Assembly: GCA_913051775.1 (NCBI GenBank) | Contig: CAJXCL010000005.1 | Location: forward strand, 5,499-69,498 | Length of the DNA stretch: 64,000 nucleotides | DNA from: an uncultured Nitrospirota bacterium | GTDB lineage: Bacteria > Nitrospinota > Nitrospinia > CAJXCL01 | Direction: 5' to 3' | Part shown: positions 17,866 through 62,953 of the stretch, piece by piece | Layout: the number at the start of each line of letters is the position of its first letter | Position numbering within the stretch: the stretch's first letter is position 1 | Notes under the pieces: model-generated | What the model saw: the letters and a program-made list of their open reading frames with translations, nothing else | Databases searched by the model: none | What the model was told of the DNA's origin: nothing | Made by a program: the position numbers and the translations under genes

Positions 17866-17884
17866 AGATTTTTATTCTTAGTTG

Positions 17885-18175: not shown

Positions 18176-18366
18176 AGTTTCTCAAGACGCGAACCACGCA
18201 TTACGCTTCTCGTACTTTAACGATTTAAAGACTATAGCTAAGTTTAAATAATCAACAATAATTGTCAATTATAAACTGTCTATTACCCAAATCCAAAAAA
18301 TTTTTAGTTTTGACAGTGTTTTAATTTTATGTTAGAAATTGGACACACATTTGCGGAGAGGAATTA

Positions 18367-19491
18367 GTGGAATTTAAAATTGCACGTGAAGAATTTTTAA
18401 AAGGGCTTCAGAAAGTACAGGGCATTGTAGACACTAAAGGCGTAATGCCTATCCTGTCTAATATCTTAATTAAAACCCAACCAAGCGGCATTGATATCTT
18501 TGCTACAGATCTTGATATTGGCATTAGGGGGTCTTACGGGGCAAAGATAATCTCAAAGGGCAGCGCTACTGTTAATGGCCGGAAACTTCATGAAATTGTC
18601 AGGGAACTTCCTGATGAAGAAATTCACTTAAAGAGCGATAAAGAAAATAACTGGATAAACATAACATGTAAAAAATCGACTTTTAAAATTGCCTGCCTTC
18701 CGGCTGAGGAATACCCTGCATTTCCCGCTTACAAAGAGGAAAAAGACCTGTGTATTGAGATTAACCTTTTGAAAGAAATGCTCAGAAAAACTAATTTTTC
18801 CATTTCAACGGACGAAACCCGCTATACATTAAACGGTGTTTTGCTTGAGTCTGAAGGGAAAGACATTTCCATGGTAGGAACCGATGGACATCGCTTGGCT
18901 TGTATTAAAAAATCAAATGGGTTTGATAAAAAGGATAAGGTAGAAATAATTATTCCAAAAAAAGCGCAGGCGGAATTGTTAAAAATATTAGAGGCCGGCG
19001 ATTCTGATCAAGGTAACGGAAAAAAGACCATCAACATTTCTGTTGAAAAAAACCATGCGGCATTTAAAGTGGATAAAATGATTTTAGTAACCCGGCTGAT
19101 CGATGGTCGTTTCCCTAATTACCGCCAGGTAATTCCGGAGGATAATAACAACAATGTTGTTATTGATTCTGAACTTTTTCTTCATGCCCTGAGGCGAGTC
19201 GCGATTTTGGCGGATGAGAAATCCAGGATGGTAAAGTTTGGGGTGCAAAAAAACCTAATGACACTTGTTTCGGATAATTCAGAACTCGGAGAAGCCAGAG
19301 AAGAGATTGATGTTGAGTATAAAGGAAATGACATAACTATCGGCCTTAATGCCAAGTATGTCATGGATATTTTAAATGTCATTAACGTAGAAAAGATCGT
19401 CTTTAAATTAAAAGACGCTGATAGTTCATGCCTGATAACTCCCACCGATAATGAAAATTACAGATGTATCGTAATGCCAATGAGAATATGA
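18367..19491 (+). CDS. dnaN: DNA polymerase III beta sliding clamp
   Basis: Three-domain beta clamp, 374 aa, GTG start. No dnaA upstream. Confidence 0.9.
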   Translation: MEFKIAREEFLKGLQKVQGIVDTKGVMPILSNILIKTQPSGIDIFATDLDIGIRGSYGAKIISKGSATVNGRKLHEIVRELPDEEIHLKSDKENNWINITCKKSTFKIACLPAEEYPAFPAYKEEKDLCIEINLLKEMLRKTNFSISTDETRYTLNGVLLESEGKDISMVGTDGHRLACIKKSNGFDKKDKVEIIIPKKAQAELLKILEAGDSDQGNGKKTINISVEKNHAAFKVDKMILVTRLIDGRFPNYRQVIPEDNNNNVVIDSELFLHALRRVAILADEKSRMVKFGVQKNLMTLVSDNSELGEAREEIDVEYKGNDITIGLNAKYVMDILNVINVEKIVFKLKDADSSCLITPTDNENYRCIVMPMRI

Positions 19492-19539
19492 CATATTTGC
19501 GGCGTTTCCGAAAAAAGCGTCTCCACAAAAAAAGATAAC

Positions 19540-20393
19540 CGTTATTCTTCTTTATTTTCTCATCCTTCAAGCTTCTGTTTTCCTGTCTCAAACACAAATC
19601 GACAAAACAAGAACCCGTTACAGCAAAATTGAAGATATGAAGTATCTTCCATCCGGACAATTTTTAAAGGGAGCTGCTTTAGCATACGATGAACTTTTGC
19701 CGATTATTTATGGATCAAAGCAATAGTTTATTTTGGTGAGCATTTCAAGACCGATAAATCTTGCCGATGGTTTTATCATCTTCTGGATGTTGTTTCAACG
19801 CTGGATCCTTACTTTGAATCTGCTTATGAAATTGGAGGCGTGACCCTTGCCTATTGAGAAAAAGATGAAAACCTGAGCATTAAACTTCTTAAAAAAGGAA
19901 TGACCAATGTTCCTAAAACTCATGAACGTGATTGGAGAATTCTTTTTTTCTTGGCTATAATTACATGGATAATAAAAAAGATTTTGCCACTGCCACGTAT
20001 TACCTGGAAGAAGCCATCAAATAACCGGGATACCCGCGATATCTTCCGTTTCTGGTTGCTCGCCTTCATTCCAATACCAAAGATCCTGAAATTGCCATTA
20101 AATTCTTAAAGGAGATTTATCGTTCAACAAAAAATGAAGAAGCAAAGAAATATATAATAAAAAGAATCAATGAAATAGTAGTGGAGAGAGATATTCTCAT
20201 TCTCGAAGATATGCGGAATCAATATCACAAAAAAATCGGTTCATACCCATCGAATATTGGAGAGTTAATTTCAGCGGGATTCTTAAAAGAAATACCCCGA
20301 GAACCATTCGGAAAAAAATATTTTATCAAAGAAGATCATTCCATTCACAGTTCTGTTGTTAAAAAAAGAATGGAATTATTTATTGATTAAAAT
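19540..20393 (+). pseudogene. Degraded gene of unknown function (possibly TPR-like), with multiple frameshifts
   Basis: Protein-like reading segments switch between all three + frames: TRTRYSKIEDMKYLPSGQFLKGAALAYDELLPIIYGSKQ*, LDPYFESAYEIGGVTLAY*, GYNYMDNKKDFATATYYLEEAIK*, EIAIKFLKEIYRSTKNEEAKKYIIKRINEIVVERDILILEDMRNQ.... Confidence 0.4.
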
Positions 20394-20442: not shown

Positions 20443-21126
20443 TAATCGCCTGTCGGAACAATGCTAAATTCGCGCACACAATCCATTTTATTCAAAGTTT
20501 CGGCCAGTTTCTGAAACTTATCTGTTTTTTTCGACCAGATAGTCATCTGGTATTGAAAGGATTTCCCTTTCCCCTCAAGATGATAGCTAAAATTGCTACA
20601 GGTAACATTGTGATTATTTATTACTTCATATAATTCTTATGCTGATATGGATTCATTACGCAAAAAGCGTATTGAGAGCCTTCCAAAGTAAAGAGATGGA
20701 ATCAAATCCTCAATCCATCGAAACAAAGACAGTATTCCTAATGTCATCAAAAAAGCTACTGCGGCCGGGAAGTAAAAACCTATTCCAATAATGATACCGA
20801 TTGAAGCTGTCATCCAAGTAGAAGCGGCAGTCGTCAAACCGCGTATAGCTAAATTTTCTTTTATTATCGCGCCGGCGCCAAGAAAACCAATACCTGCCAT
20901 AATGCCCTGCGCCATACGCGTCAGATCAATCCTTATTGTCTCCATGTGCTCATCAGTCACAAACTCCCATTGATTCACAGAAAATAACATCAAAAGGGTA
21001 GAAGAGACAAGTGTGTGTTCGAAAGCCGGCCGGACGCCCATGGTAGGAACGCTCAAGGCCAATAAGCCACCCGGCAAATAGAGCAAAAATCAGTCGAAGA
21101 ATCGTTTCTAAATATTCGGTTCCCAT
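20443..21126 (-). pseudogene. mgtC: MgtC/SapB-family membrane protein gene with at least 2 frameshifts
   Basis: The true N-terminus MGTEYLETILRLIFALFAGWLIGLERSYHGRPAGFRTH is in one frame. A 1-nt shift in an ACACACAC run leads to LVSSTLLM...GIGFLGAG (ORF 20637..21086). The C-terminal ACT-like part YHLEGKGKSFQYQMTIWSK...VREFSIVPTGD lies in a third frame. Confidence 0.6.
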
Positions 21127-21216
21127 GAAGATACAAGTTCCCTAAATTACCTATTGATGCTGAGGCACATTAATTACACCGGAAATGTAGATATCTACTA
21201 GTTATATCAGGATGGG

Positions 21217-22161
21217 CTAACGATTTCGAGGCTTTACACTATGAGTTGTGGATTCGTCAGCATTTCTGGCACATCGAAAACCAATGTTTGGAAGTTTCGT
21301 GTCTGGAGATAAAGGATGGCGAAATGTGGTTCGTGCATTTTCAAGGATATTTTTCCATGAGCCCCCGCGAAGAACTCTATATTGTTTTTGAAACCGAACA
21401 TCAAGGTCCAAATTGTTTTTATAAGGCAAATACAGGCTGTCGGTCCATTCCCAAACATTTCCCGCCATGTCAAAAACTCCAAAAACACTTGCCCCCTGTG
21501 GAAAACTTCCTACCGGAACAAGACCGGCAGGGTTCTCCGCATTTGATTGAGATTCTTCATTTTCAAGGATACTTGCCGCGTTTTTTCTTGAAGAATCGCC
21601 CCATGGCCATTTTACTGGCTGTGTACCCCGGGCGGCTTTTTCCCATTCAGTCTCTGTTGGAAGTCGTTTCCCTGCCCATTTACAGTATTTTTTTGCTTCT
21701 TGCCATGTAATGCCAGTAACAGGACAAAGATCGCACTCTGAGGCAGGATAGCTTTCATACTGATTGTCAAATAGTTTGTACTGAGCATTTGTTATTTCGT
21801 ATATATCAATAAAAAACGCCGGTACAAATACCCTTGCGGCAGGTCTTTCATTTTTTTCCCCGAGGTTATCACCCATAGTAAAATTACCGCCTTGCAAGTA
21901 AGCCATATCAGAACCATCTTTTTTATTAAAATAAGTTGGCAATATAGCTGGTAATCCGGGAATAATTTTTTTAACTTTTTTCTTTCTTGGTTCAGGTTCC
22001 TTGATGATTTCTTCTTTTGATGGTTTCTTTATTATTACTTTAGGGGGTTTTTTGCGCTTTTTTGTCGGAACTATTTTGGCGCAGGAGATTGGAAAAACTA
22101 ATATCATTATTAAAGCAAAATATTTAATATATTTTTTATTCATGAAGACTTCTCTAAACAA
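21217..22161 (-). CDS. Formylglycine-generating enzyme (FGE/SUMF1) family lipoprotein
   Basis: GNVWEWT, RGGSW, GFRCAR motifs. N-terminal lipoprotein signal (LVFPISCAK). Confidence 0.8.
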   Translation of the reverse strand: MFREVFMNKKYIKYFALIMILVFPISCAKIVPTKKRKKPPKVIIKKPSKEEIIKEPEPRKKKVKKIIPGLPAILPTYFNKKDGSDMAYLQGGNFTMGDNLGEKNERPAARVFVPAFFIDIYEITNAQYKLFDNQYESYPASECDLCPVTGITWQEAKKYCKWAGKRLPTETEWEKAARGTQPVKWPWGDSSRKNAASILENEESQSNAENPAGLVPVGSFPQGASVFGVFDMAGNVWEWTDSLYLPYKNNLDLDVRFQKQYRVLRGGSWKNILENARTTFRHPLSPDTKLPNIGFRCARNADESTTHSVKPRNR

Positions 22162-23008
22162 GAGTACAATCTATAATAGTTAATACCATCAAAAGAACAC
22201 TTATTTGTCCGTTAACGTTAAAAAATGCCACATTAATCTTTGATAAGTCATTGGGCCTTACAATTGAATGTTCATACAATAAAAGAGCAGAAACAATAAT
22301 TATACCCGATAAATACACCCAGCCAAGCTGTTTTGTAAGTAATAACAGCATCAGAAAAGTAACCATAATCAAATGAAATAAAGATGACAATTTTAATGCT
22401 TTTTCTACCCCAAATTTTTCAGGAATGGATAAAAGACCGGCTTGTTTATCAAACTCAATATCCTGGCACGCGTAAATAATATCAAAACCAGCCAACCAGA
22501 ATATTACTGCCGCACCTAATATTAGAGGCGTTATTGTTATGTCTTCCCTGACGGCAACCCACGCGCCAATAGGGGCAAGGCTTAATGCCAACCCCAAATA
22601 AAAATGGGAATACACAGTAAAACGCTTTGTCCATGAATAAAAGAACACAATGCTTAAAGCAACGGGTGATAGAAAAAAGGCAAGGCTGTTTAATTGATAA
22701 GCGGAAAAAACAAAAAGAGCTATAGAGCCTAATAAAAAAAACAGATAACTCTGACGGTTGATTTTTTTGGAAGGCAGAGCACGGTTTTTTGTTCTGGGAT
22801 TCAACGCGTCATATTTTGCGTCTACAATCCTGTTACAAGCCATGGCAGCGCTTCTTGCACCAACCATTGCCAGTAAAACCCAGATAATTTTATTCATTGA
22901 AGGGAGACCTTCTGAAGCAATGAACGCGCTCATTAAAGCAAATGGAAGCGCAAAAACAGTATGACTGAATTTTATATCTTCAAAGAGAATTTTAATTTTA
23001 GAAAACAT
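22154..23008 (-). CDS. UbiA-family aromatic prenyltransferase
   Basis: NRIVDAKYDALNPRTKNRALPS Asp-rich motif and 8-9 TM helices. Confidence 0.85.
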   Translation of the reverse strand: MFSKIKILFEDIKFSHTVFALPFALMSAFIASEGLPSMNKIIWVLLAMVGARSAAMACNRIVDAKYDALNPRTKNRALPSKKINRQSYLFFLLGSIALFVFSAYQLNSLAFFLSPVALSIVFFYSWTKRFTVYSHFYLGLALSLAPIGAWVAVREDITITPLILGAAVIFWLAGFDIIYACQDIEFDKQAGLLSIPEKFGVEKALKLSSLFHLIMVTFLMLLLLTKQLGWVYLSGIIIVSALLLYEHSIVRPNDLSKINVAFFNVNGQISVLLMVLTIIDCTLV

Positions 23009-23262
23009 GGGATGTGTTAAAAGTTCGTCTTAAAATATTTTAGCGGCTTTGGCTGCTCGACGAATTAATATATAACATAACGCAACGAAGCTGCAATAAA
23101 AGGATTTGCCTTTGAAATAAACTGAGGGGGAAGAGTGGCCAACGAAAACCCCGGGAGAGGTGAAACGCTAATAGCCAGGGGTATAAACCCCTGGGACAAA
23201 GGTTAAAAACAAATCATAGTCCTTAAAGGGCAAAGCAAATAGCTAACATCTAATCTAAAACC

Positions 23263-23295
23263 TATATTTTTCTTTTGCAGTCAAAAGGAGACCTG
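23263..23295 (+). terminator. Hairpin AAAGG-agacctga-CCTTT followed by T8
   Basis: Stem-loop plus T-run on the + strand in a 430-bp spacer with no annotated + gene upstream. A CCAGGGG-tataaa-CCCCTGG hairpin lies at 23192-23211. Confidence 0.3.
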
Positions 23296-23444
23296 ACCTT
23301 TTTTTTGGTGTCGTTTCTCGATTCCAAGTTGAAAATAATTTTTCGTGTCTTTCGTGATTTTCGTGGTTTGAAGGAACCACTGCGTTTGAAGCTCCCTTCA
23401 GCAAAGCTGAGCTTATCTCTGCAAGACCACAGGGAATGAGCTCA

Positions 23445-24260
23445 CTAAACACTCTGAAGATAATCTTTTATGGAAGTTTCGAGTACCTCAATGTTGATAT
23501 AGGTGTTTTTACACGGTCCTTCCGGGCGCTTATTGGGAATGGCAAGGACGGGAATTTTCGGAGCAACATCCTGTAAACCGATAACCAGGTCTCTTTCACA
23601 GGCTACGGCGATAATGGCCTGCGGCTTCATTTCTTTAATTTTCAGTCGAGCCGCGCTTCCCCCGGCTACGGTAAAAGAAATAAGTTTGTTTTTTTCCACT
23701 ATCTCTATAATGGTTTTTCTGTTCTCTTTCGAAAGACATCGGGGCAAAAGAACAAGGAGTCTGTTAGGATCAACCTTCCCATATTTGGGACGGCTCTTTG
23801 ATTTTGCATGAACAATAATATTGCTGACTTTGATTAAAGAATTCCCCATCCGATCACGGGAAACACCAAACCTTTTACCTAATCGAACGGCAACGGGAAC
23901 CAGGTAGGAAAAAAAGAAATTTTCTTTGATGCAGGAAAGCAGATAGCCTTTTTCCGTAAGAGCTGTAATCGCAACACTTCCCAACATTAGAAAGATCAGG
24001 ATTGCAAAAACAACAACCCCAATGCCGATTATTATTGTTAAAACCGGGGCGAACTGTTCCAAGCGGGGAATGATCATGTACCAGATAAATATAAGCCCTG
24101 TTACTATCAGGGCTGTACCAACGGAGGCGTATTTCAAAAAAGTAGATTTGCTTTCTTCTATCTCGCCTTTTTGCTCTTCAGTTTCTCCGCTCCAATCTGC
24201 CCACTCATCTCCCAATTTTCTGTCTTGTGCTGGTGCCACTTGATTTTTTACTTGGCTCAT
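23445..24260 (-). CDS. DUF116-family membrane protein
   Basis: LLVLLPRCL...FTVAGGSAARL...AIIAVACERDLVIGL...RPEGPCKNT conserved Cys pattern of DUF116, with N-terminal TM helices. Confidence 0.65.
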   Translation of the reverse strand: MSQVKNQVAPAQDRKLGDEWADWSGETEEQKGEIEESKSTFLKYASVGTALIVTGLIFIWYMIIPRLEQFAPVLTIIIGIGVVVFAILIFLMLGSVAITALTEKGYLLSCIKENFFFSYLVPVAVRLGKRFGVSRDRMGNSLIKVSNIIVHAKSKSRPKYGKVDPNRLLVLLPRCLSKENRKTIIEIVEKNKLISFTVAGGSAARLKIKEMKPQAIIAVACERDLVIGLQDVAPKIPVLAIPNKRPEGPCKNTYINIEVLETSIKDYLQSV

Positions 24261-26859: not shown

Positions 26860-27675
26860 ATGGGAAAGATAATTTGTATAGCTAACCAAAAAGGGGGCGT
26901 TGGGAAAACCACCACCGCCGTCAATCTTGCCGCTTCTCTTTCTATAGCAGATTTAAAGATATTGCTTGTTGATTCTGATCCACAGGGAAATGCCACCAGT
27001 GGAATGGGAATTTCAATCAATGGAAGCCCTACAATTTACAGCTCTTTAGTCGGCGATGAACCCCTTAGTAATATCATTATGGATACGGAACTGGACAATC
27101 TTTTTATCTGCCCGTCAAATATGGACTTAAGCGGGGCTGAAATTGAGCTGGTTGGAATGGAAAAAAGAGAATTCAGGCTAAAAAATTCCATTTCCTTTGT
27201 GAAGAATAATTATGATTTCATTATAATTGATTGTCCGCCTTCATTAGGTTTACTAACTTTAAATTCCCTGGTTGCGGCTGATTCTATAATCATTCCACTT
27301 CAAAGCGAATATTATGCGCTCGAAGGACTGGGGCACCTTTTAAAAACCGTTCAATTGGTGAAAAACAGTTTGAATCGTAATTTGTCTATAGAAGGGATTC
27401 TTTTGACTATGTTTGATTCCCGAACCGCTCTTTCATCAGATATATATGATGAAGCGAAAAAGCATTTTTGTAATATTTTGTTAAAGACTGTCATCCCTCG
27501 CAATGTCCGGCTCAGTGAAGCCCCAAGCTATGGTAAACCGATAATTTTTTATGACAATACCTCAAAAGGCGCTCATGCCTATTTAGATCTGGCAAAGGAA
27601 ATTATTTTCAATGCAAAGAAAAGCTTTAGGGAGAGGGCTGGAAGCGCTCATTCCCAAAACGAAAAATTTAACTGA
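26860..27675 (+). CDS. parA: Chromosome partitioning ATPase ParA/Soj
   Basis: KGGVGKTTTAVNLAASL deviant Walker A. Confidence 0.9.
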   Translation: MGKIICIANQKGGVGKTTTAVNLAASLSIADLKILLVDSDPQGNATSGMGISINGSPTIYSSLVGDEPLSNIIMDTELDNLFICPSNMDLSGAEIELVGMEKREFRLKNSISFVKNNYDFIIIDCPPSLGLLTLNSLVAADSIIIPLQSEYYALEGLGHLLKTVQLVKNSLNRNLSIEGILLTMFDSRTALSSDIYDEAKKHFCNILLKTVIPRNVRLSEAPSYGKPIIFYDNTSKGAHAYLDLAKEIIFNAKKSFRERAGSAHSQNEKFN

Positions 27676-28447
27676 TTCTTCAGGGATCATGCAGGTTCCT
27701 ATCGAAGACATTTTTCCGGGAAAAATGCAGCCCCGGAAAGACTTCGATGAAAAAAGCCTGAAAGATCTGGCTTCATCAATAAAAGAAAAGGGCATTTTAC
27801 AACCTCCAATTGTGCAGAGCAAAAATGACGGATATGAGCTGATAGCCGGGGAAAGGCGATGGAGAGCAGCGCAAATAGCCGGACTCAGTAAAATCCCTGT
27901 AATAATTAAAGATCTATCGGGTTCAGAAGCTCTGGAAGTAGCTTTAATAGAAAATATTCAGAGAAAAGATCTGAATCCCATAGAGGAGGCCTCGGTATAT
28001 AAAAGATTAATTGATGATTTTAATCTCACCCAGGAAACTCTTTCGAAAAGGGTTGGAAAAGACCGCTCATCTTTAGCCAACTACCTCCGTTTATTAAAGC
28101 TTCCTCGACTTATTAAGCAGGATTTAGTTAATGGTGCTCTTTCGATGGGACATGCAAGGGCTTTGCTGGCTCTATTCTTGCCCGGGAAACTCTTTGAGGT
28201 CAGAGATTCTGTGGTTAAAAAGGGGCTGTCTGTCCGTGCAACTGAAGCTTTAATAAAAAGAATGAATAATCCCCAAAAGAAACCTGACAAAAAATCAAAA
28301 AATGTTTTTATCGTGGATTTAGAAAATAAACTTCAGAAATCTTTTGGAACTCGTGTTAAAATAAAAACATCTAATAAAGGCGGAAAAATTGAAATTTCTT
28401 TTTTTTCCAATAATGACCTTAATAGAATTATAAAAATAATAAGCTAA
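27611..28447 (+). CDS. parB: Chromosome partitioning protein ParB/Spo0J
   Basis: ALGRGLEALIP, LIAGERRWRAAQIAG, HTH. Overlaps the parA 3' end by 65 nt. Confidence 0.9.
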   Translation: MQRKALGRGLEALIPKTKNLTDSSGIMQVPIEDIFPGKMQPRKDFDEKSLKDLASSIKEKGILQPPIVQSKNDGYELIAGERRWRAAQIAGLSKIPVIIKDLSGSEALEVALIENIQRKDLNPIEEASVYKRLIDDFNLTQETLSKRVGKDRSSLANYLRLLKLPRLIKQDLVNGALSMGHARALLALFLPGKLFEVRDSVVKKGLSVRATEALIKRMNNPQKKPDKKSKNVFIVDLENKLQKSFGTRVKIKTSNKGGKIEISFFSNNDLNRIIKIIS

Positions 28448-52201: not shown

Positions 52202-52698
52202 CAGACCCGTCGCTCGGAAGACTGTCCAAATGGCTCCGGATACTTGGTTTTGATACTGTTTATTTTTCCAACCCTTTAGATGAGCAGCAGTTTTTTGAAA
52301 AAGCAAGATATGAAAACCGTCTGATTCTTACCCGTAGTGGGAAAATAATAAGGCAGCTTAATAAAATAAATATTGAAACTGCCCAACCATCAGAAAGTTC
52401 CGATCTGTTAATAAATTATTATTTTATTACTCACAATCATATTTATGAACAATTAGAAGATCTAATAGGCAAAGAACTTATTCTTCAGCCAAAACATTTG
52501 TTTGCCCGCTGTTCGGAATGTAATGAAATTTTAAAGGAGATTAACAGGGAAGAAGTCCACGGTAAAGTTCCCGATTACATTCGGGAGACACAAGAGAGTT
52601 TTCGGCAATGCCCTCATTGCAAAAAAATCTTCTGGGAGGGGACACATTGTAAGAGAATGAAAGAGAAAATAAATAGATTGTATGGCAAAGAAATATAA
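52171..52698 (+). CDS. Mut7-C RNase domain (DUF82) protein
   Basis: LGRLSKWLRILGFDTVY...LILTRS...CSECN...CPHCKKIFWEGTHCKRM. The first Met may be 52147 or 52171. Confidence 0.7.
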   Translation: MSGKKEQKILADPSLGRLSKWLRILGFDTVYFSNPLDEQQFFEKARYENRLILTRSGKIIRQLNKINIETAQPSESSDLLINYYFITHNHIYEQLEDLIGKELILQPKHLFARCSECNEILKEINREEVHGKVPDYIRETQESFRQCPHCKKIFWEGTHCKRMKEKINRLYGKEI

Positions 52699-53193
52699 TC
52701 CTGAAACACATCATCGACGCTCCATTCGTCTTAAAGGATATGATTACCGACAGGCTGGGGTATATTTTATAACAATTTGTTCATGGGACAGGCAATGTAT
52801 GTTTGGCAATATTTTAAATAAAAAAATGCCGTTGAATAAATTCGGGCAGATTGTGGAAAAGGAATGGTTGCAAACAGGTGTCGTCCGGACGAATATAAAA
52901 TTGGATGTATTTATTGTAATGCCCAATCATATCCATGACATTACAATGTGATCAATAATGTTGTAGGAGCGATTATCGGACAATTTAAATCTATCGTTAC
53001 AAAACGAATCAATAAAATGCGTAACACCCGTGGTATTCCTGTCTGGCAACGCAATTATTATGGACATATTATCCGCAATAATGACAAACTGGATCGTATG
53101 CGTGAATACATCATTAATAACCCTGCAAAATGGGCAGAAGATGAAAATAATCCATTAATATTTGAGAAAACAGGAAAAGACATGCCAGGTTAA
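52682..53193 (+). mobile_element. REP-associated tyrosine transposase (RAYT)/IS200-like Y1 transposase, split by a 1-nt frameshift near 52945
   Basis: HRRSIRLKGYDYRQAGVYFITICS..R...FG...LNKFGQIVEKEW...LDVFIVMPNHIHDI (frame 2) then VGAIIGQFKSIVTKRINKMR...VWQRNYYGHIIRNNDKLDRMREYIINNP (frame 1). Confidence 0.65.
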
Positions 53194-53203
53194 CCATCAT
53201 TAA

Positions 53204-55153
53204 TTACAGAAACTGCTCATTAATGGTAATATTCGCGTTTTTTCTTAAATTTTCCAGCCATGCTGACAGCACTTCGTTCTGCTTATTCTCAAGAAAAGAT
53301 TTTAAAAAATCATCCCTTTCTTTTTTGTACATCTCCTCGTCAAATCCAGATCTTTCAATCATCAAAATGACGTAGTATTTCCCTGAAACAGGGACCACAG
53401 CAGATTCTTTCACCTTTAACTTAAAGGCAGCGTCTAACAAAGACCTGTTCATCCCGAACTTATTAATTGCTTGCTCCCGGTCAAAATAGAGCGTGTGTGA
53501 TACTTCAACCTCTGCCTGCGCTGCCAAAGCGTCTATAGGCTTACCTTCATCAAGTTCTTTCTTAAGACGATACGCTTCCTCTTTTGCAATTTTTTCTCTC
53601 TCAAACTGTGATAAAGATTTTTTTACCTCATCTTTAACTTCATCCAGTTCAGGTATATAAGACGCTTTTTTCTCTTTAAGCATGAGTAAATAGTATCCTT
53701 TTGCCGTTTCCACAAGGCGGCTAAGCTCATTATCCTTCAATAAAAAAGCTTCTGACTTGAATTGAGAAGATGTTCCGATCGTAGGAATTTCATGATCTTG
53801 CATACTAAAAAAATCTGTAGAATTTTTAATTAAAGAATCCTGAGAACCGGATTTTTTAAACTCATTAACAGGACTCGGATTTTTCAAAATTTGTAATAGG
53901 GATCGTTTCGAAAGTTTTTTGCTTTTTCTATCAATTAATTTCCCCTTGATTTCATCTTCCACATCACTTAGTGGCTTTGTGCCGGCCTCTTTTTTATCAG
54001 TTATTTTTATAATATGGTACCCGTGCTTTGATTCCACAACATCGCTTATTTCACCAACGTTAAGTGAAAAGGCAACATCTTCAAATTCTTTGATCATTCC
54101 CCCTCTGGAGAAATAGCCAAGATCTCCCCCTATACCCGCGTTCGAATGATCTTCTGAGTATTTTTTTGCCAATTCTTCAAAGTTTCCATTTTCCTTTACC
54201 TCTGTTAATATATCTTCCGCTTTTTTTCTTGCTTCCTCTTTTTGTTTCTCAAGATCCTCTTCAATTTTCTTTTTCATTTTTTCACTGTCTTCTAAATCAA
54301 CATTTACCGGTAAATTTTTAGTCAAAATATGACTGGCGCGCACTGACTCAGCAACAATAAACTCGTCCATGTGATCCGTGTAATAATTTTCAATACTCTG
54401 CTTACCTATTTTTATCTCTTTTCCAAATAAAACAGGATCAGCGAAAAGATATTCGACTTTAATCTGATCCGATTTTTTAAAACTTTCTTTTTCTTTTTTA
54501 AAATATTCGGAAACTTTTTCATCTGTTATTTTTTCTTTGCCCATAAAAAGATCGGGCGAAAGCACAAGATAATCCATATTTATTTTTTCATGCTTCCACT
54601 CATAGGCTTCTCGCATCTCCAGTTCTGAGACTTTAACGCTATTCCTTATTAAGCTTTCTGTTTTTTCCGTAAGCATAGCTGTTCGTTGATTGTTTTCAAA
54701 ATTTTTCGCTCCAATTCGATTATATTGCAGAAAATTATGGTAATAGCTTTTATCAAACTTCCCATCATTTTGAAACGCAGGTATACTTTTGATTCTTTCA
54801 ATCACTTCCTCATTGGATACTTCTATACCCATTTTTTTTGCTTCATTTAAAAGCAACTTCCTCTGGATTACAGAATTGAGCGCCGCTTTTTTCAATTGTG
54901 ACTGGGGTATTACATCTTCCACATTTCTGTCTTTCATAGCGTTTCTATAAATATTATATAAATTGTCAAGGGCCTCCCTGTATTCATCATAAGAAATTTT
55001 CTCATCAAGGACTTCCGCAACCATTCCCTGTCGCTCGGCAACCCGCCCCATACCCCACGAATAAAATATTGTCCCGACAAAAGCCGCCACAACCAACCAC
55101 AAAACCGATTTTATCAGCCAGGAGTGGGCATGTTCTCTCATTAACTTAAGCAT
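53204..55153 (-). CDS. ppiD: Periplasmic chaperone PpiD-like (SurA-N + parvulin PPIase domain)
   Basis: N-terminal TM anchor. VRASHIL parvulin motif. Confidence 0.8.
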   Translation of the reverse strand: MLKLMREHAHSWLIKSVLWLVVAAFVGTIFYSWGMGRVAERQGMVAEVLDEKISYDEYREALDNLYNIYRNAMKDRNVEDVIPQSQLKKAALNSVIQRKLLLNEAKKMGIEVSNEEVIERIKSIPAFQNDGKFDKSYYHNFLQYNRIGAKNFENNQRTAMLTEKTESLIRNSVKVSELEMREAYEWKHEKINMDYLVLSPDLFMGKEKITDEKVSEYFKKEKESFKKSDQIKVEYLFADPVLFGKEIKIGKQSIENYYTDHMDEFIVAESVRASHILTKNLPVNVDLEDSEKMKKKIEEDLEKQKEEARKKAEDILTEVKENGNFEELAKKYSEDHSNAGIGGDLGYFSRGGMIKEFEDVAFSLNVGEISDVVESKHGYHIIKITDKKEAGTKPLSDVEDEIKGKLIDRKSKKLSKRSLLQILKNPSPVNEFKKSGSQDSLIKNSTDFFSMQDHEIPTIGTSSQFKSEAFLLKDNELSRLVETAKGYYLLMLKEKKASYIPELDEVKDEVKKSLSQFEREKIAKEEAYRLKKELDEGKPIDALAAQAEVEVSHTLYFDREQAINKFGMNRSLLDAAFKLKVKESAVVPVSGKYYVILMIERSGFDEEMYKKERDDFLKSFLENKQNEVLSAWLENLRKNANITINEQFL

Positions 55154-55320: not shown

Positions 55321-55976
55321 CTAAAGACAATAAAACAAGGTTATATATGCAACGATCTCATCGCTGATATCCACGTTAGGCATTTTCGAATCTTTTTTAA
55401 ATGCTGAGGAATCTTTGATTACTTTAAAAATTTCCTGTGGCTTCATTTTAAATTTTATATTGTCCAGTTGTGGTCTTGATTGATCACCAAGCATATATTT
55501 TTTTGTGACAGCTATTGCAACTGTATTTTTTGAAATAATTTTTCCCAATTTTGATTTCTCTTTCCTCTTTCGGAATTTCTATCTCTACTTCTTTTAAGCA
55601 GAGTAGTCTATCGGCTCTCCCTCGTTAGGGTGAAGGGTTCGCACATAACCGGCTAACACTCCAGCTTCATACTCAGAAAGGGTCTTTCTTCCCCACGAAG
55701 GCATAGCAATCGCTTTGTCCATCCCAGCGCCTCCTTTTGTAATAACGTTACCAATGCTTGATTGGATAATTTTGCCAAATATCTTTCTTCACTGTCATTC
55801 AAATCTCTCGGTTTGGGATTAAGGAATTCCGAGTTGACCCCATCACCCTTTCCTTTCTAACCATGACACTGAGTACAAAAATGAATAAAGAGTTTCTTTC
55901 CAATATCTTGCGGTTCTTCTATACCAGCGGAAACAAATGGGAAAAGTATAGATTGGCTCAACAGGCATATCAGCAA
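55321..55976 (-). pseudogene. Diheme cytochrome c4-like gene carrying an in-frame TAG and at least 3 frameshifts
   Basis: Domain 1: signal-like LLICLLSQSILFPFVSAG, then GKKLFIHFCTQCHG*KGKGDGVNSEFLNPKPRDLNDSEERYLAK, then a -1 shift in an A-run to IIQSSIGNVITKGGAGMDKAIAMPSWGRKTLSEYEAGVLAGYVRTL. Domain 2: IGKNYFKKYSCNSCHKK, then a shift in an A7 run to YMLGDQSRPQL...KMPNVDISDEIVAYITLF. Two CxxCH motifs. Confidence 0.5.
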
Positions 55977-56049
55977 AGCATCGCAAAGAAGCCGCTAACT
56001 ATTTGCAGTGAACCGTGGAAAGGACACTGAAGAAAATGAATTCATGGGG

Positions 56050-56895
56050 TCAATTGCCCATAGCACTATGAGCCAGGCGAAATCCGATGGAGTAGGATTG
56101 ATCACGCGGGGCATATTCGAGGCGCATGGTTGACCGGAGATGTTTCGGCAAATCCCCCCAGGAACCGCCCCGCAACACACGGTAAGACCCTTTCAAAGAT
56201 CCTTGAGGATTATCACGAGGACTTTTTTCATAATATTTTCTCCCATACCAATCAGATACCCATTCCCAAACATTACCCGACATATCATACAAACCAAGAG
56301 AATTCGGTTTTTTTGTTTTTACAGCATGGGTTTTCATTCCTGAATTATGCTCATGCCAGGCATGATCTTCCAATTCCTTAAAAATGCTTGTCCCTGACCA
56401 TACTACCCTTTTCCCTCTTCCCCGTGCCGAATATTCCCATTCCGCTTCTGTGGGAAGTCTATAATTCATACCGGTATTGCTGTTTAGCTTTTTAATAAAC
56501 TTCTCAATATCATTCCAGGATACTTTCTCAACGGGGCAGTCTTTCCCGCATTTATTAAAATTAGATGGATTATTTCCCATTATTTCCTGCCATTTCTCCT
56601 GTGTTACCTCATGCTCTCCAAGATAAAAATTACCCACACATACCTTATGGACAGGTCTTTCATCCGAATTTCCAACCTCATATGTGTCTCCCATATTAAA
56701 ACAATCTCCTTTGATAAAAATCATTCCTTCAATGGGCCTGTCATTGTTATGGGAAACGCCACTTACTTCAGGATCTGTCTTAATGACTTGAGAGTCTTCG
56801 GCAAAGGCACGCGATAAAGGCGCATGAATTAACAACATAACATTCATGTAAAAAATTATTCTAAATATGATTTTATTTATTATAAATCTTCGCAA
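56050..56895 (-). CDS. Formylglycine-generating enzyme (FGE/SUMF1) family protein, second copy
   Basis: GNVWEWVSDWY, RGGSWG, GFRLAH. N-terminal signal sequence. Confidence 0.8.
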   Translation of the reverse strand: MRRFIINKIIFRIIFYMNVMLLIHAPLSRAFAEDSQVIKTDPEVSGVSHNNDRPIEGMIFIKGDCFNMGDTYEVGNSDERPVHKVCVGNFYLGEHEVTQEKWQEIMGNNPSNFNKCGKDCPVEKVSWNDIEKFIKKLNSNTGMNYRLPTEAEWEYSARGRGKRVVWSGTSIFKELEDHAWHEHNSGMKTHAVKTKKPNSLGLYDMSGNVWEWVSDWYGRKYYEKSPRDNPQGSLKGSYRVLRGGSWGDLPKHLRSTMRLEYAPRDQSYSIGFRLAHSAMGN

Positions 56896-57032
56896 GAGAA
56901 CTTCCTATTTTCACATTCTCAATAAAAAAACATACAAACATCTCTCAGATATTGCAAATAAAAGTTTCAATAAATGGTTGAAAGAATAATTTTTCTATGA
57001 TAGACTTTAGCTCTTTTTTTTTGTTGAATTAA

Positions 57033-57072
57033 TTACTCTTAATTATATTAATTATATTAATTATATTAATTT
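57033..57072. repeat. Short AT-only tandem repeat (ATTATATTAATT x3)
   Basis: aattatattaattatattaattatattaatt in the spacer upstream of the small Zn-ribbon gene. Confidence 0.4.
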
Positions 57073-57148
57073 TTTTGTCAACTTTCCACTTCGAAACAGT
57101 GAGAAAGATGAGTTTTATAATTTAGTAAACTTTTTTTAAGGAATCCAA

Positions 57149-57340
57149 ATGGGTAATAATGAAAAAACTAATAGATATGACATTGAGCAAATAAATGAAG
57201 CCAGGCGTTTGTCTGGTTTAAAAGAAATACGAACAAAAGGTCGCAGTTGCCTTCGCTGTGGCAGAAAATTTGTTTCAGAAGGGGATCACAATCGTTTGTG
57301 CGATACCTGCCGCAAAGTCAGCGTAAGTGAATTTGTATGA
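57149..57340 (+). CDS. Small zinc-ribbon protein (CxxC...CxxC)
   Basis: 63 aa with CLRCG...CDTC. AAGGAA RBS 8 nt upstream. Confidence 0.4.
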   Translation: MGNNEKTNRYDIEQINEARRLSGLKEIRTKGRSCLRCGRKFVSEGDHNRLCDTCRKVSVSEFV

Positions 57341-57358
57341 TACCTATAGAAGGTTTTC

Positions 57359-58066
57359 TTAACCTCTTGATTCACTTGCATCTTTCACAAAACTTTTACT
57401 ACCATTCCCCTGATAGACATATTGCATAGTGTAGCAACTGCTTATTCTTTTTTCCTCTTTCTTGCAATAAAAATTTATAACCTGCATTTTGGCGTAATTT
57501 CCCTCAGCAGTTTTTATTATAAAAACATTTTTATGTGACTTAAGGTAATGGTCCCAGAAACTATATTTATACCATTTTTCTAAGTTAGCATTATTAGAAT
57601 CTGGTACAGGGGGAGGACTAATATTTTTTATAAATTTCGAATCTTCAGGAACTTGAGTTAAAGAATCAAAATCTGTGGTTCCCAGTTTTGCGACTGAAAC
57701 CTGCCCCTTTTTACTTTTATCTCCCCAATTAGATGCAATATTCGCGCGGCTAAATGCCAGATCCCAACTCTCTGGTGCCGACTGATTTGTAACACCTGGG
57801 ATAACACTTCCCCTGGAAAAATCAAAAAATACCCAATTATCTATATCAGTTGCTTCAAAAGTATATATTACTGTGTCTGTTAATTTTTTGCCTACCTTTA
57901 TTGGATCAATAGATGATACGGTGTATAACTTTTCTGGCTTTTCCTTTAAAAGATCGGGCATTTGAATATTCATTTGACCCATCATAATTCTATAACCGAT
58001 CTCAATTGAAAGAAGCATAAGAAATATATAAACAATATTAGGAAGATATTTCAATAATCTTTTCAT
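57359..58066 (-). CDS. Hypothetical secreted/membrane-anchored protein (possibly HmuY-like)
   Basis: N-terminal TM/signal segment. Weak resemblance to the HmuY-like beta fold. Confidence 0.35.
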   Translation of the reverse strand: MKRLLKYLPNIVYIFLMLLSIEIGYRIMMGQMNIQMPDLLKEKPEKLYTVSSIDPIKVGKKLTDTVIYTFEATDIDNWVFFDFSRGSVIPGVTNQSAPESWDLAFSRANIASNWGDKSKKGQVSVAKLGTTDFDSLTQVPEDSKFIKNISPPPVPDSNNANLEKWYKYSFWDHYLKSHKNVFIIKTAEGNYAKMQVINFYCKKEEKRISSCYTMQYVYQGNGSKSFVKDASESRG

Positions 58067-58197
58067 ATGACTAAAGTTAAGGTATTTAGTAATTCTTGCA
58101 ATCAGTGAGTATAATAATTAAACTACCTTGCATAAGCTATGAAATTTCCGAGACGTGAACATTATTTTGGCTCTATTCTTAATAGTGTAAAATATAT

Positions 58198-58656
58198 ATG
58201 ATTCTATTAAAATATTTTAGCTACTTTAAAAACAATTTTTTTTTAAACTATTTAAGATCTATCGCAATGGTCTTAATTATTTTATTAGTTTTTTTGGAAA
58301 ATAACGTTAGTGGACAGAAAAAGACATTCACCGCAAAAATAAATAAAGATGGTGTTCAAGTAATTGAGATGAAAGCAGGTGACTACTACTTTTCTCCTAA
58401 TTTTATTACTGTAAAAGTTAATGTACCGGTAGAAATTAAGCTTATCAGAAAATCAGAATTCACACCACATAACATAATGCTAAAAGCGCCTGAGGCAGGT
58501 ATTAATATTTCTACGTCTATAATGCGAGAGCCTAAGGTTATAAAATTTACACCTGTCAAAACCGGGAAATATCTTTTTATTTGTGATAGAAAAGTATTCT
58601 TCTTTATAAAACACAAATCAAAAGGCATGCAAGGCATACTTAAAGTAATCGAATAA
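58198..58656 (+). CDS. Cupredoxin-like (type-1 copper) domain protein
   Basis: Signal peptide, then YYFSPNFITVKVNVPVEIKLI...TPHNIM...GKYLFICD...HKSKGMQGILKV, with His, Cys, His, Met ligand spacing as in cupredoxin_1-type proteins. Confidence 0.65.
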   Translation: MILLKYFSYFKNNFFLNYLRSIAMVLIILLVFLENNVSGQKKTFTAKINKDGVQVIEMKAGDYYFSPNFITVKVNVPVEIKLIRKSEFTPHNIMLKAPEAGINISTSIMREPKVIKFTPVKTGKYLFICDRKVFFFIKHKSKGMQGILKVIE

Positions 58657-58679
58657 ATTTTTTAGAAGTTTTTTCCGCA

Positions 58680-59387
58680 TTGTCCGAGATTTTGTCATCC
58701 TTATCCCCTGTAGTGTTTATGGTGCATATGGAAAAACACCAAAAATCTAAAATAAGTTCTTTTGCTTTTTCCAAAACTGACGACCCTTCCACAAAAAAAT
58801 ACTTTTTCATAATCATTTCCGTACTGGTTGTGATATCCATTATATCTTTTACGGCATGGAATAAGGCGAGGGTTGAGCTAACTGAGATACATATTTCTTC
58901 GGAAGATAAACAGAGATTGGGAGAGCTTGTCCTTAAAGTTGCAAGCAATCCCAGAGACCTAAAGAAGGTTTATAATGGTTTTTGGAATGTTTTGGATAAA
59001 TACAACTCATTATCCGCGTATCAGCTCTCTCATTTGAAAGAAAATATGAGAGAGTTATTTTATTTACCAAAACTATTTTTGGAGGATGCCGGGAATACTG
59101 TAAAAAACCAGAGTCCCTTTAAAAGCATTGAGAGAGATAGACTCGAAAAATATTTTCTACAGGAAGGCTTTTTAACTGAACAACAGGTTGAAGATGATAA
59201 AGAGACCATGAAACTTATCGCGCTAAAGAAACCCTTAAAAGCGTCTCATGGTTTGGAAATAATTATTGAAGAAAAGCGTATCGGTGAAATGCTGCAAAAT
59301 TGGAATGATAAAGAGATTGAAAAAATTATAGACAGGCTCTTTACTCCTTTAAAAGATTCCCCTACCGCGGAGGCAGGGGGGAAATAA
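58680..59387 (+). CDS. Hypothetical membrane-anchored protein
   Basis: One TM helix then a charged helical region. No family recognised. Confidence 0.4.
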   Translation: MSEILSSLSPVVFMVHMEKHQKSKISSFAFSKTDDPSTKKYFFIIISVLVVISIISFTAWNKARVELTEIHISSEDKQRLGELVLKVASNPRDLKKVYNGFWNVLDKYNSLSAYQLSHLKENMRELFYLPKLFLEDAGNTVKNQSPFKSIERDRLEKYFLQEGFLTEQQVEDDKETMKLIALKKPLKASHGLEIIIEEKRIGEMLQNWNDKEIEKIIDRLFTPLKDSPTAEAGGK

Positions 59388-60712: not shown

Positions 60713-62533
60713 CTAATGTTCACTGCCTGTTTTACCTGCCTTTAATTGGAGCCAGATAACTCCGCTTAGAATCAGAAAATATACCAGAGTTATCTCGGTT
60801 ATTAATAATGATGAGTCTTTTAAAGCAGGCGTATAGGCATCAGGCGTCATATCCTTAAAAACCCTGTAAACATGGAAGTTTCTACGCGCCAGGGACCTGA
60901 TAGCACCCATTAAACTCATCAGCCATATTCCGGAAAATGCTAAAAAGATTAATCCCACTTGGGAGATAGGGTTAATTTTCCCCCATACGACTGTTCCTTT
61001 TCTCATGGCTACCCTGTATAAAACAAAATTGACAAAGGTAATAAAGACCAGACCAAAAGAAGCCTTAATTTTTATTCCCATGACACCCATAAAGGCCAGA
61101 TCACCGGATAATTCCATGATACGCATATACTCGCTTTTTTCCATACCCTCAGGGATCATGCCCGGCTCCGGTACCATGGTGGCAAAGACATGCCTGGGGC
61201 AAAACCAGAGAGCGGCGCAAACAAACATAATCGCAAAGTTTATTTTTACCCATCTTAAATATTTTGGATCCCCTTTAATACGTTGCATACTCACATATAT
61301 ATAATAACTGCTGCCGATAAATAAAAAGCCAACCAGCACCGCCTGAAGTTCCATATACATGGAAAGGCGATCCGACATAATATACATACCGATATTCGGA
61401 TCGTAGGCATATAATTCCCTGGCCAGATAGTATCCCATCAGCGGGAGCGGAAGTAAAAAACCAACACCTAAAGTATTTCCAGTATATCCCTGCCAATCGT
61501 AAAAAGCCCTTTCTTCGTCGTTTTTCGCGAAAAGATACATAATCGCGGCGATCACACCTACAAGATAACCTCCAAAGGTAAGGTTTCCAACCAGCCTGTG
61601 GTAATTGAGGGGCCACCATGAATAATTATTAATCCAGGCCCATTCTCCAAATGTGGCTATCTCCTTAATGGAGCCCTCAACTTTGGGGGGGGTTGTCATC
61701 ATAGCGGCCGGGCCGTCCATAAGCAGAAGGAGCGAAATCCCCGCCACATTTAATAAAATCCCGATAAGAATATGTACGCCCTTTCTGTTGGCTTTGTTGA
61801 GAGGATCCCAAGTATAATAATAAAGATACATAAAACCAGTTTCTACAAGAAACAACATGGGGTACCAGAAGGTTATCAGGTCATTAAAACCTCGAAAGAA
61901 CCAGGTAGTAAAGGTCGGATAATAAACAATGAGGCATAAAGCAAAAAACCCACCGGTTAGGGCAGTAAAGCTGTAACACATTACAAACACTTTTGTTACT
62001 TCATAGGCCAGTCTTTCATATCTTTCATCCCTAGTTTTCAAAAATAGACATTCCGCGATAACAGTATATAGCGGAACGCCAAGAATAAATGACGCGAACA
62101 GGATATGGAGCTGAGCGATAACCCAGATCAGGTTCCGATTTGAAAGGCCGAAATTGAACTTGTTGACCGGAAGATCGTTATAATCTTCTCTCTTAACCAT
62201 ATCTCTGTTTGGGTTGTCCGGATTGGTTTTAAACTCCGGAAACGGCTCAGTACCCATTGGGATTTCTACAGGCTGTATTTCTCCTTCTGCTGTTTCTTCT
62301 TCCTCAGCTTCTTCTTCCTCTTCCTCATCTTCGAGAAACTCGCCCTCAGCTTCTTCTCCCTCAGCTTCTTCTGGCTCCGAGACTTCCTCAGCAGCAGAAA
62401 CTGCCTCAGCTATGGCTATAAAAGGGGATGATGGGGAAATTATATGAGCTCCCATATAACAAAAGGACAAGAAAAATAAAGCGATAAAAATTAGGGTTAA
62501 TTTTTTGTACAAAAAGATTGTTTTAATATTCAC
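60713..62533 (-). CDS. Cytochrome bd ubiquinol oxidase subunit I-like (CydA-like, bd-like) membrane protein with acidic Glu-rich N-terminal extension
   Basis: VIAQLHILFASFILGVPLYTVIAECLFLKTRDERYERLAYEVTKV resembles the CydA N-terminal helices. ~14 predicted TM segments, 606 aa. N-terminal EEEEEEEAEEEE stretch after a signal/TM segment. Confidence 0.75.
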   Translation of the reverse strand: MNIKTIFLYKKLTLIFIALFFLSFCYMGAHIISPSSPFIAIAEAVSAAEEVSEPEEAEGEEAEGEFLEDEEEEEEAEEEETAEGEIQPVEIPMGTEPFPEFKTNPDNPNRDMVKREDYNDLPVNKFNFGLSNRNLIWVIAQLHILFASFILGVPLYTVIAECLFLKTRDERYERLAYEVTKVFVMCYSFTALTGGFFALCLIVYYPTFTTWFFRGFNDLITFWYPMLFLVETGFMYLYYYTWDPLNKANRKGVHILIGILLNVAGISLLLLMDGPAAMMTTPPKVEGSIKEIATFGEWAWINNYSWWPLNYHRLVGNLTFGGYLVGVIAAIMYLFAKNDEERAFYDWQGYTGNTLGVGFLLPLPLMGYYLARELYAYDPNIGMYIMSDRLSMYMELQAVLVGFLFIGSSYYIYVSMQRIKGDPKYLRWVKINFAIMFVCAALWFCPRHVFATMVPEPGMIPEGMEKSEYMRIMELSGDLAFMGVMGIKIKASFGLVFITFVNFVLYRVAMRKGTVVWGKINPISQVGLIFLAFSGIWLMSLMGAIRSLARRNFHVYRVFKDMTPDAYTPALKDSSLLITEITLVYFLILSGVIWLQLKAGKTGSEH

Positions 62534-62652: not shown

Positions 62653-62802
62653 CTATTTCTTCAACCCGATCATTAGTATAAAACCAATAGCAAAAAAACC
62701 GATTACTCCCACATACCAGTCAATAAACAAAATTAAAACTGAGGTAACAAGGCCAATGATGCCAATATACCAGTCAATATGCTTATCAATTAACTCTCTC
62801 AT
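62653..62802 (-). CDS. Small 2-TM membrane protein (49 aa) immediately upstream of the CydA-like gene
   Basis: MRELIDKHIDWYIGIIGLVTSVLILFIDWYVGVIGFFAIGFILMIGLKK, internally repeated (DWYIG/DWYVG). It is below the ORF-track length cutoff. Confidence 0.35.
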   Translation of the reverse strand: MRELIDKHIDWYIGIIGLVTSVLILFIDWYVGVIGFFAIGFILMIGLKK

Positions 62803-62953
62803 CGATTTCACCCCTCAAGTATAAAGTTATATGCATTTTTAAGGTAATAACTTTAACGTAAATAATGAATCGCGATTTTAACTTTATAAAAACTTTGAGT
62901 CAAGGTTTTTACATAGGTACAACAAATCTGTATAATCTAAATTTAAAAAACTG

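Follow-up and report, generated by a model that had tools for sequence, protein, structure and literature searches.

The bd-like oxidases of the OR-N family lack a quinol site and are encoded in operons with alternative electron donors (Lucker 2013, PMC3578206; Murali 2021, bioRxiv 10.1101/2021.01.16.426971). They are conserved in Nitrospinota and have been described as putative cytochrome-c-oxidising O2 reductases (PMC3578206; bioRxiv 10.1101/2021.01.16.426971; PMC10839748). The clusters of Nitrospina, Nitrospira and Kuenenia encode mono- and dihaem cytochromes c, a zinc-finger protein, two cupredoxin-like proteins and the bd-like oxidase (PMC3578206). Here we analysed a 64-kb window of a marine Nitrospinota chromosome, the stretch of DNA to which all statements on the presence of genes refer, in which a bd-like oxidase gene lies near a decaying gene for a soluble dihaem cytochrome c. 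Most Nitrospinota have retained these oxidases, and to our knowledge no electron donor to a bd-like (OR-N) oxidase has been demonstrated.

We regard the locus as a bd-like oxidase neighbourhood of a known kind in which one redundant electron carrier is being lost, a loss documented at the level of populations. It is read here as a genus-level syntenic block of several transcription units, whose functional core would be the bd-like oxidase and the cytochromes, and in which the soluble cytochrome is decaying (probability about 0.62). The linked core would comprise the bd-like (OR-N type) oxidase, its membrane dihaem cytochrome c and the soluble periplasmic dihaem cytochrome c. A preliminary description of this DNA had proposed a copper/haem respiratory island that had lost its soluble cytochrome carrier. 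Its observation was confirmed and its interpretation partly supported.

The bd-like oxidase and its cytochromes c

The gene map was based on a listing of open reading frames (ORFs) and on Pfam and NCBIfam scans. The proposed core consists of the following genes:
60713-62533, minus strand: bd-like CydA homologue of 606 amino acids (aa), PF01654
59566-60594, minus strand: membrane-anchored dihaem cytochrome c of 342 aa (cytc342), PF00034 and PF13442
55321-56045, minus strand: pseudogene of a soluble periplasmic dihaem class-I cytochrome c, from three-frame translation and DNA alignment

The PF01654 match of the CydA homologue was confined to residues 138-379, the N-terminal haem-binding part, and cytc342 was located 118 nt downstream of the bd-like gene. 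An N-terminal-only CydA match with an adjoining c-type cytochrome is the arrangement of an OR-N type cluster, and from the literature (PMC3578206; bioRxiv 10.1101/2021.01.16.426971; PMC10839748) we infer that the protein belongs to the OR-N family. The dN/dS ratio was 0.09-0.10 for the bd-like CydA and 0.07 for cytc342, which was 99% identical to its counterpart in L006, a contig 96% identical to the window.

As in the Nitrospina, Nitrospira and Kuenenia OR-N clusters, the quinol-site-less bd-like CydA adjoins c-type cytochromes, the presumed donors, and a cupredoxin-like protein and a small zinc-finger protein are encoded close by. Unlike those clusters, the window contained no NXR genes and one cupredoxin instead of two, had additional FGE-fold and HmuY-family genes, and carried one dihaem cytochrome as a pseudogene. 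No counterpart of its zinc-ribbon protein or cupredoxin was found by tblastn in the fetched Nitrospira and Kuenenia loci.

GTDB species representatives were scanned with the alignment of the soluble cytochrome, and the window proteins were compared with 80 loci by tblastn. The species of the window itself was not among the representatives recovered. In the distant set of 75 genomes (Nitrospirota, Acidobacteriota, Gallionellaceae, Nitrosomonadales, Acidimicrobiia and others), a bd-like CydA gene was found within 10 kb of the cytochrome homologue in at least 46, many of the contigs being short. An FGE gene was near the homologue in one of the 75, and the cupredoxin, the HmuY-like protein, the zinc-ribbon protein and the 235-aa membrane protein of the window were each detected by tblastn at none of these distant loci. 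The cytochrome family is a habitual cross-phylum neighbour of bd-like oxidases. With 46 of the 75 distant genomes pairing the two, it is the decayed gene that is most strongly tied to the oxidase across phyla. We infer that electrons probably pass from this soluble cytochrome family to bd-like oxidases.

The orthologues of the soluble cytochrome have invariant C50, C53, H54 and M108, and C179, C182, H183 and M224, corresponding to two class-I domains. In a profile search of PDB sequences, the closest solved relative was Kuenenia 6H5L_B (E 2e-19), followed by CcoP-type domains, and no canonical cytochrome c4 entry was retrieved at E<=0.01. No NCBIfam equivalog reached its cutoff. The protein resembles cytochrome c4 and the Cyc1-cupredoxin chain of Acidithiobacillus ferrooxidans: it is soluble and periplasmic, each of its two class-I haem c domains has a CxxCH motif and a Met ligand, and a cupredoxin and a terminal oxidase are encoded nearby. 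It differs from cytochrome c4 in its lack of detectable sequence kinship at the above threshold and in the inactivation of its gene here. The preliminary description had called it a diheme cytochrome c4-like protein; the two-domain architecture holds and the family membership does not. Judged from its sequence, 'cytochrome c4' would fit the protein as an architecture, not as a family.

Further features were noted around the bd-like gene. A 52-aa hydrophobic ORF (62653-62811) lies just upstream, with 49 aa at the same place in L001 (an independent assembly), L006 and L016; by analogy, it may be a small oxidase subunit like CydX/CydS. The bd-like protein carries a long glutamate-rich low-complexity N-terminal extension, AEEVSEPEEAEGEEAEGEFLEDEEEEEEAEEEETAEGE, at residues ~45-90 (window ~62260-62400). 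The bd-like proteins of sister species vary in length (601, 606 and 636 aa), and the tblastn alignment begins at residue 88. Sister species (L016 14938-18655; L023 9144-11644) have three more genes beside the bd-like gene, encoding a 255-aa outer-membrane-barrel-like ORF, a 265-aa dihaem cytochrome c that is 44% identical to the c4-like protein, and a 425-aa fusion of Cytochrome_C554 and Lcl_C (C-type-lectin-like) domains. Neither the window nor L001 or L006 has this trio at the bd-like locus; it resembles a porin-cytochrome module.

Lesions in the soluble cytochrome gene

The ATG of the pseudogene is located 4 nt past the stop codon of FGE1, a gene for an FGE-domain protein described below. 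Lesions were mapped by DNA alignment to the intact L009 and the half-decayed L006-L008. Six were found in total, two nonsense codons and four frame-disrupting indels:
55997-55995, minus strand: in-frame TAG
55859-55857, minus strand: in-frame TAG directly past the first CxxCH-G
between 55757 and 55756, minus strand: -1
55598/55597 junction, minus strand: deletion of 28-29 nt
~55504-55498, minus strand: +1 in an A-run, past the second CxxCH
~55335-55332, minus strand: -1 in a T-run near the C-terminus

In the three-frame translation, a signal-peptide-like start leads to FCTQCHG and then TAG. The frame shifts within ...QK/GGAGMDKAIAMPSWG, the deletion follows the first domain, and SCNSCHK is followed by a further frame shift before the final -1 close to the C-terminus, so that both CxxCH motifs are still legible. 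The conceptually repaired product had intact homologues of 246-260 aa at 67-70% identity (P0001-P0004). Intact genes occupy the slot between FGE and PpiD in L009, L016-L020, L104 and L105. The inactivation noticed in the preliminary description was borne out by these lesions, all of which recur in L001. The synteny comparison it had called for, with intact orthologues in the FGE-to-PpiD slot of sister species, agrees with its view that a soluble carrier has been lost.

The broken reading frame could in principle be a sequencing or assembly artefact, or be rescued by recoding (TAG read-through or programmed frameshifting), as both in-frame stops are TAG and two of the frameshifts lie in homopolymer runs. 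TAG, however, is the ordinary stop in 11 of 50 genes, and TAG reassignment was rejected for this reason. The six lesions include a deletion of 28-29 nt, and the pseudogene stretch is 100% identical in the independent assembly L001. Between window positions 46050 and 64000, this assembly differs from the window by one 9-nt indel in 17.9 kb with zero mismatches, and the window is matched at 99.9-100% identity by contigs of five independent assemblies (ENA, JGI, NCBI). In related populations, the first frameshift is shared and the lesion sets differ, and the substitution pattern is relaxed. An artefact or recoding is effectively refuted as an explanation.

The +1 after the second CxxCH (ins1@ref550) was common to all decayed alleles (window, L006-L008, L106 and L107). 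The two TAGs, a -1 and the 28-29 nt deletion were private to the window. In L006-L008, a stop past domain 1 gives a 156-aa monohaem product (P0005), and L106 has a nonsense codon differing from those of the other decayed alleles. Based on small counts, omega (dN/dS) was 0.13-0.34 among intact orthologues and, among decayed alleles, 0.44-0.57 for domain 1 and 0.7-0.96 for domain 2. Seven nonsynonymous and zero synonymous substitutions were counted in domain 2 between the window and L006.

The pseudogenisation of the soluble dihaem cytochrome is true, recent and still under way; the intact gene is the ancestral state, and the decay was stepwise. The +1 frameshift just past the second CxxCH arose first, with lineage-specific lesions following in each sublineage. 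The soluble cytochrome would have become dispensable in the window lineage, whose allele has lost both haem domains.

The syntenic block and its FGE-domain proteins

The other genes of the locus, together with a second FGE-domain gene and its neighbour elsewhere in the window, are as follows:
53204-55153, minus strand: PpiD, from the ORF listing and Pfam/NCBIfam
56050-56895, minus strand: FGE1, secreted FGE-sulfatase-domain protein (PF03781, E 5e-50)
57149-57340, plus strand: 63-aa CxxC...CxxC zinc-ribbon miniprotein (weak zf-FPG_IleRS match, 23 bits)
57359-58066, minus strand: HmuY-family protein with an N-terminal membrane anchor (PF14064, E 3e-20)
58198-58656, plus strand: Cupredoxin_1 protein, periplasmic or membrane-tethered (PF13473, E 1e-8)
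58680-59387, plus strand: single-pass, all-alpha membrane protein of 235 aa, matching no Pfam/NCBIfam family
21217-22161, minus strand: FGE2, lipoprotein-like FGE-fold paralogue (FGE domain)
22154-23008, minus strand: UbiA-type prenyltransferase (UbiA subfamily TIGR01475, 317 bits)

Every element that the preliminary description had listed at 55321-59387 was recovered in place. Of its two hypothetical membrane-anchored proteins, the product of 58680-59387 keeps that description and the product of 57359-58066 was assigned to the HmuY family. The locus genes lie on alternating strands and form at least five transcription units. In a promoter/terminator scan of the window, the signal was insufficiently above background to delimit operons. 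Signal peptides in the locus proteins were judged by eye only.

The whole block was kept in L006 (96% nucleotide identity) and in L016-L019 (74-93% amino acid identity), and the genes neighbouring the pseudogene were under purifying selection (dN/dS 0.10-0.38). Relatives of the locus were recovered from marine metagenomes, those of Tara Oceans among them. Synteny of the block is limited to approximately one genus. In the metagenome-assembled genome (MAG) Fu_MAG_119, the bd-like, cytc342 and HmuY genes are contiguous, with no cupredoxin pair between cytc342 and HmuY, and the zinc-ribbon, FGE, intact cytochrome and PpiD genes are located on a separate contig. Therefore, the cupredoxin operon is an indel within the block.

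FGE1 and FGE2 were 29% identical to each other. A look-up of the exact FGE2 sequence gave no match, probably because another start had been chosen by gene callers. The best solved match was Treponema TvpA 2Y3C (141 bits) for FGE1 and SUMF2/pFGE 1Y4J for FGE2, which matched SUMF1 and SUMF2 structures at E 1e-27 to 2e-31. Both proteins share the fold and core of SUMF1 and of the FGEs of Streptomyces coelicolor and Thermomonospora curvata, with the RLPTEAEWE and GNVWEW motifs and a GFR motif near the C-terminus (GFRL in FGE1, GFRC in FGE2). Unlike these enzymes, both lack the two Cu(I)-binding cysteines. FGE1 reads GGSW---GDLPKHLRS opposite GGSYLCHDSYCNRYR of S. coelicolor FGE, with a gap at the CxxxxC copper site, and FGE2 reads GGSWKN---ILENART opposite GGSYMCHRSYCYRYR of human FGE, with no Cys at the CHRSYC positions. 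The Cys pair was also missing across the FGE1 orthologues, and no sulfatase gene was found among the 47 window ORFs scanned or annotated. Because the sulfatase-maturing Cys pair and sulfatase genes are both missing, the preliminary description, which had not taken these proteins for sulfatase-maturing enzymes, is not contradicted on this point. FGE1 has subfamily-conserved cysteines of its own (C65, C86, C116 and C120, including CGxxCPVE) and belongs to a very large CGxxCPVE subfamily, sharing 50-60% identity with thousands of FGE-domain proteins across many phyla. A Nitrospinota MAG is the named source of the FGE1 protein. Its dN/dS was 0.37 against L019.

Both proteins scored far below the cutoffs of the NCBIfam equivalogs (GldK, EgtB, PvdO, SenA and OvoA). 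An EgtB, OvoA or SenA identity was rejected, as the C-terminal FGE domain alone matched, with 80-114 bits against cutoffs of 360-420.

As a reference NirV, we used the protein encoded on Sinorhizobium meliloti pSymA (L186), whose nirV (17737-18651) lies directly downstream of nirK (18750-19880). A tblastn search of the plasmid with FGE2 did not return NirV directly, and the gene was found by reading pSymA beside nirK. FGE1 was 25% identical to this protein over 105 aa (36 bits) and FGE2 26% over 148 aa (39 bits). Like NirV, they are periplasmic proteins with a PF03781 domain alone, encoded near copper and cytochrome redox genes. Unlike NirV, neither adjoins nirK, the identity extends over just a part of the domain, and FGE2 is nearest to SUMF2/EgtB-type domains. 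No nirK or multicopper oxidase gene was found in the window by the Pfam and NCBIfam scans or annotation. A NirV identity of FGE1 was rejected, given the far higher identity to thousands of non-NirV proteins and the lack of an adjoining nirK. Because of the low identity of FGE1 and FGE2 to NirV and the missing nirK, the label 'NirV-like', which the preliminary description had given to both proteins, should be dropped. An FGE-domain gene near redox genes should not be so labelled by default. FGE1 is best described as a putatively secreted, non-catalytic binding protein of the FGE/C-type-lectin fold, and is neither a formylglycine-generating enzyme nor a NirV orthologue.

As already pointed out in the preliminary description, FGE2 is encoded next to a UbiA-type prenyltransferase; the two genes overlap by 8 nt. 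They are part of a minus-strand run (20637-24260) of DUF116, UbiA-type prenyltransferase, FGE2 and MgtC-family genes.

In a model that extends the one of the preliminary description, the locus is one copper/haem respiratory island, the FGE-fold proteins act like NirV as accessory or maturation factors for copper redox proteins, here the cupredoxin, and copper replaces the cytochrome. The full gene order kept in L006 and L016-L019 and the short gap between FGE1 and the cytochrome are consistent with such an island. True FGE is a copper enzyme, NirV accompanies NirK in ~61% of nirK genomes, and the dihaem cytochrome and cupredoxin chain of A. ferrooxidans provides a precedent (PMC5982212). Fu_MAG_119 mirrors the window, with the cytochrome intact and the cupredoxin pair missing; however, it is a fragmented MAG whose contigs join uncleanly. 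The model also conflicts with the distance of FGE1 and FGE2 from NirV, with the lack of Cys ligands at the FGE copper site in both, and with the absence of nirK from the window. In another Nitrospinota lineage, the homologue P0026, 66% identical to FGE1, has an unrelated gene neighbourhood. Distant cupredoxins pair with DUF4079 and, outside the genus, never adjoin the bd-like gene, and the locus itself is divided among at least five units on alternating strands. A single island was not upheld, and we consider the model unlikely.

Another possibility is that FGE1 is a ligand-binding or variable surface protein, like the Treponema TvpA that is a target of a diversity-generating retroelement (DGR), and stands next to the cytochrome by chance. 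TvpA is its best solved match, FGE1 evolves fastest in the block, and similar FGE domains, whether fused or stand-alone, are found by the thousand across many phyla. Nevertheless, the C-terminal 300 nt of either FGE gene are not repeated in the window, and no reverse transcriptase was found among the 47 window ORFs by the Pfam or NCBIfam scans. The C-terminal 'variable region' of FGE1 is nearly invariant between the window and L006, and the operon that FGE1 forms with the cytochrome is kept throughout the genus. The DGR-target idea was rejected for want of a template repeat in the window, and a chance neighbour of this type is very unlikely. As a weaker reading, C-type-lectin-fold modules might be dedicated partners of periplasmic cytochromes, based on the FGE1-cytochrome operon and on the Cytochrome_C554 and Lcl_C fusion of the sister species, which recalls this operon.

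The cupredoxin and the other genes of the window

In an alignment of 27 homologues of the cupredoxin, the putative type-1 copper ligand H91 was invariant, and C129, H139 and M144 were at least 90% conserved, in agreement with the His/Cys/His/Met set reported in the preliminary description. The AlphaFold2 (AF2) model had a predicted local distance difference test score (pLDDT) of 85. Foldseek gave a probability of 1.0 to Cupredoxin_1, CuA, plastocyanin and auracyanin, as for a cupredoxin beta-sandwich. The top matches were the metal-binding domain of CopA (CopA-MBD, 4F2F), Bacillus anthracis Cupredoxin_1 4HCF, CupA and CuA domains. The compact cupredoxin fold is shared with 4HCF and with CupA and CopA-MBD (4F2E/4F2F) of Streptococcus pneumoniae (target-normalised TM score 0.77-0.84), and the Cys and Met of the window protein align with the copper loop of 4HCF. 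Unlike the His/Cys/His/Met site, those of CupA and CopA are Cu(I) chaperone/sensor sites.

The ligand loop reads C-x9-H-x4-M, a 7-residue insertion relative to C-x2-H-x4-M of 4HCF, with the conserved His 10 residues past the Cys. The short-loop cupredoxin type (C-x2-4-H-x2-5-M) was rejected on account of this spacing. By an exhaustive search with a hidden Markov model, the family comprised 279 clusters (50% identity) at E<=1e-10. Among the best 148 retrieved representatives of these clusters, C-x9-H-x4-M was present in 83, and no C...H...M motif was read in 41, many of them incomplete sequences. The N-terminus has a hydrophobic helix and then VSG followed by Q, homologues have AxA-type sites, and the start is ambiguous (58198 or the ATG at 58267). 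Most probably, the protein carries electrons by a type-1 copper site and represents an uncharacterised family with a long ligand loop; copper binding is predicted from the conserved ligands.

In five distant contexts examined, the neighbour of the cupredoxin homologue was DUF4079, a b561-like four-helix membrane protein, in three, and outside this genus a bd-like gene was never beside it. In unrelated genomes (L013 8001-8883, L102 6001-6842 and L015 1380-2277), a long-loop cupredoxin gene adjoins or overlaps a 143-aa DUF4079 gene. This suggests that the two form a hitherto uncharacterised transmembrane electron-transfer pair. A full-text literature search found no paper containing the term DUF4079.

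The membrane-protein gene at 58680-59387 starts 24 nt downstream of the cupredoxin gene and is probably co-transcribed with it. Its product was conserved in L006 and L016 (dN/dS 0.38). In L099, the ORF that precedes a 60%-identical cupredoxin is dissimilar to it. Its single-sequence AF2 model was uninformative (pLDDT 48).

The HmuY-family protein (dN/dS 0.19) matched Porphyromonas gingivalis HmuY 3H8T (E 4e-11), which supports its assignment to this fold and family. Residues 92-147 of the 3H8T chain, the haem-ligand region of HmuY, remained unaligned with it. We take the axial haem ligands of P. gingivalis HmuY to be H134 and H166. The zinc-ribbon miniprotein was 93% identical in the sister species (dN/dS 0.34) and had no NCBIfam match.

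The remaining window consists of housekeeping genes near the origin, namely dnaN, parAB, mutS, pntAB and pgk. The presence of dnaN (18367-19491) and parA/parB (26860-28447) indicates that the chromosomal origin is close by. No Rfam family or tRNA was matched in the window. An IS200/RAYT-like Y1 transposase at 52682-53193 is split by a frameshift into ORFs of 89 and 81 aa; positions 52700-53181 are missing from L006, which identifies this element as a recent insertion that is already broken.

Several observations weigh against the reading of the locus as a block with an oxidase-cytochrome core. Some of the matches at distant loci may be orthologous to cytochrome domains of other proteins. The ligand loop of the cupredoxin was modelled at a lower pLDDT (~80). 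The FGE1-cytochrome operon, with its 4-nt spacing, was kept in every species of the genus examined, and a functional link between the two is possible; the conservation of this operon is limited to the genus. FGE1 has also evolved faster than its neighbours in the block between the window and L006 (dN 0.032, omega 0.54). FGE1 could be losing constraint along with its dead cytochrome partner, for which this rate is weak evidence.

With the soluble cytochrome decaying within this block, the cupredoxin or a cytochrome paralogue may compensate for its loss. The oceanic Nitrospinota lineage may be swapping an iron-costly dihaem cytochrome c for the long-loop cupredoxin as the periplasmic donor to the OR-N oxidase, a proposal that we regard as unlikely. 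If it is true, the coexisting populations would represent this replacement at different stages of decay, a respiratory analogue of the plastocyanin/cytochrome c6 switch.

The locus pinpoints a dihaem cytochrome family that tracks bd-like genes over many phyla. In one abundant marine lineage, the soluble cytochrome would be dispensable, as its gene is decaying while the oxidase is strongly constrained. The long-loop cupredoxin family, usually paired with DUF4079, is a candidate alternative carrier.

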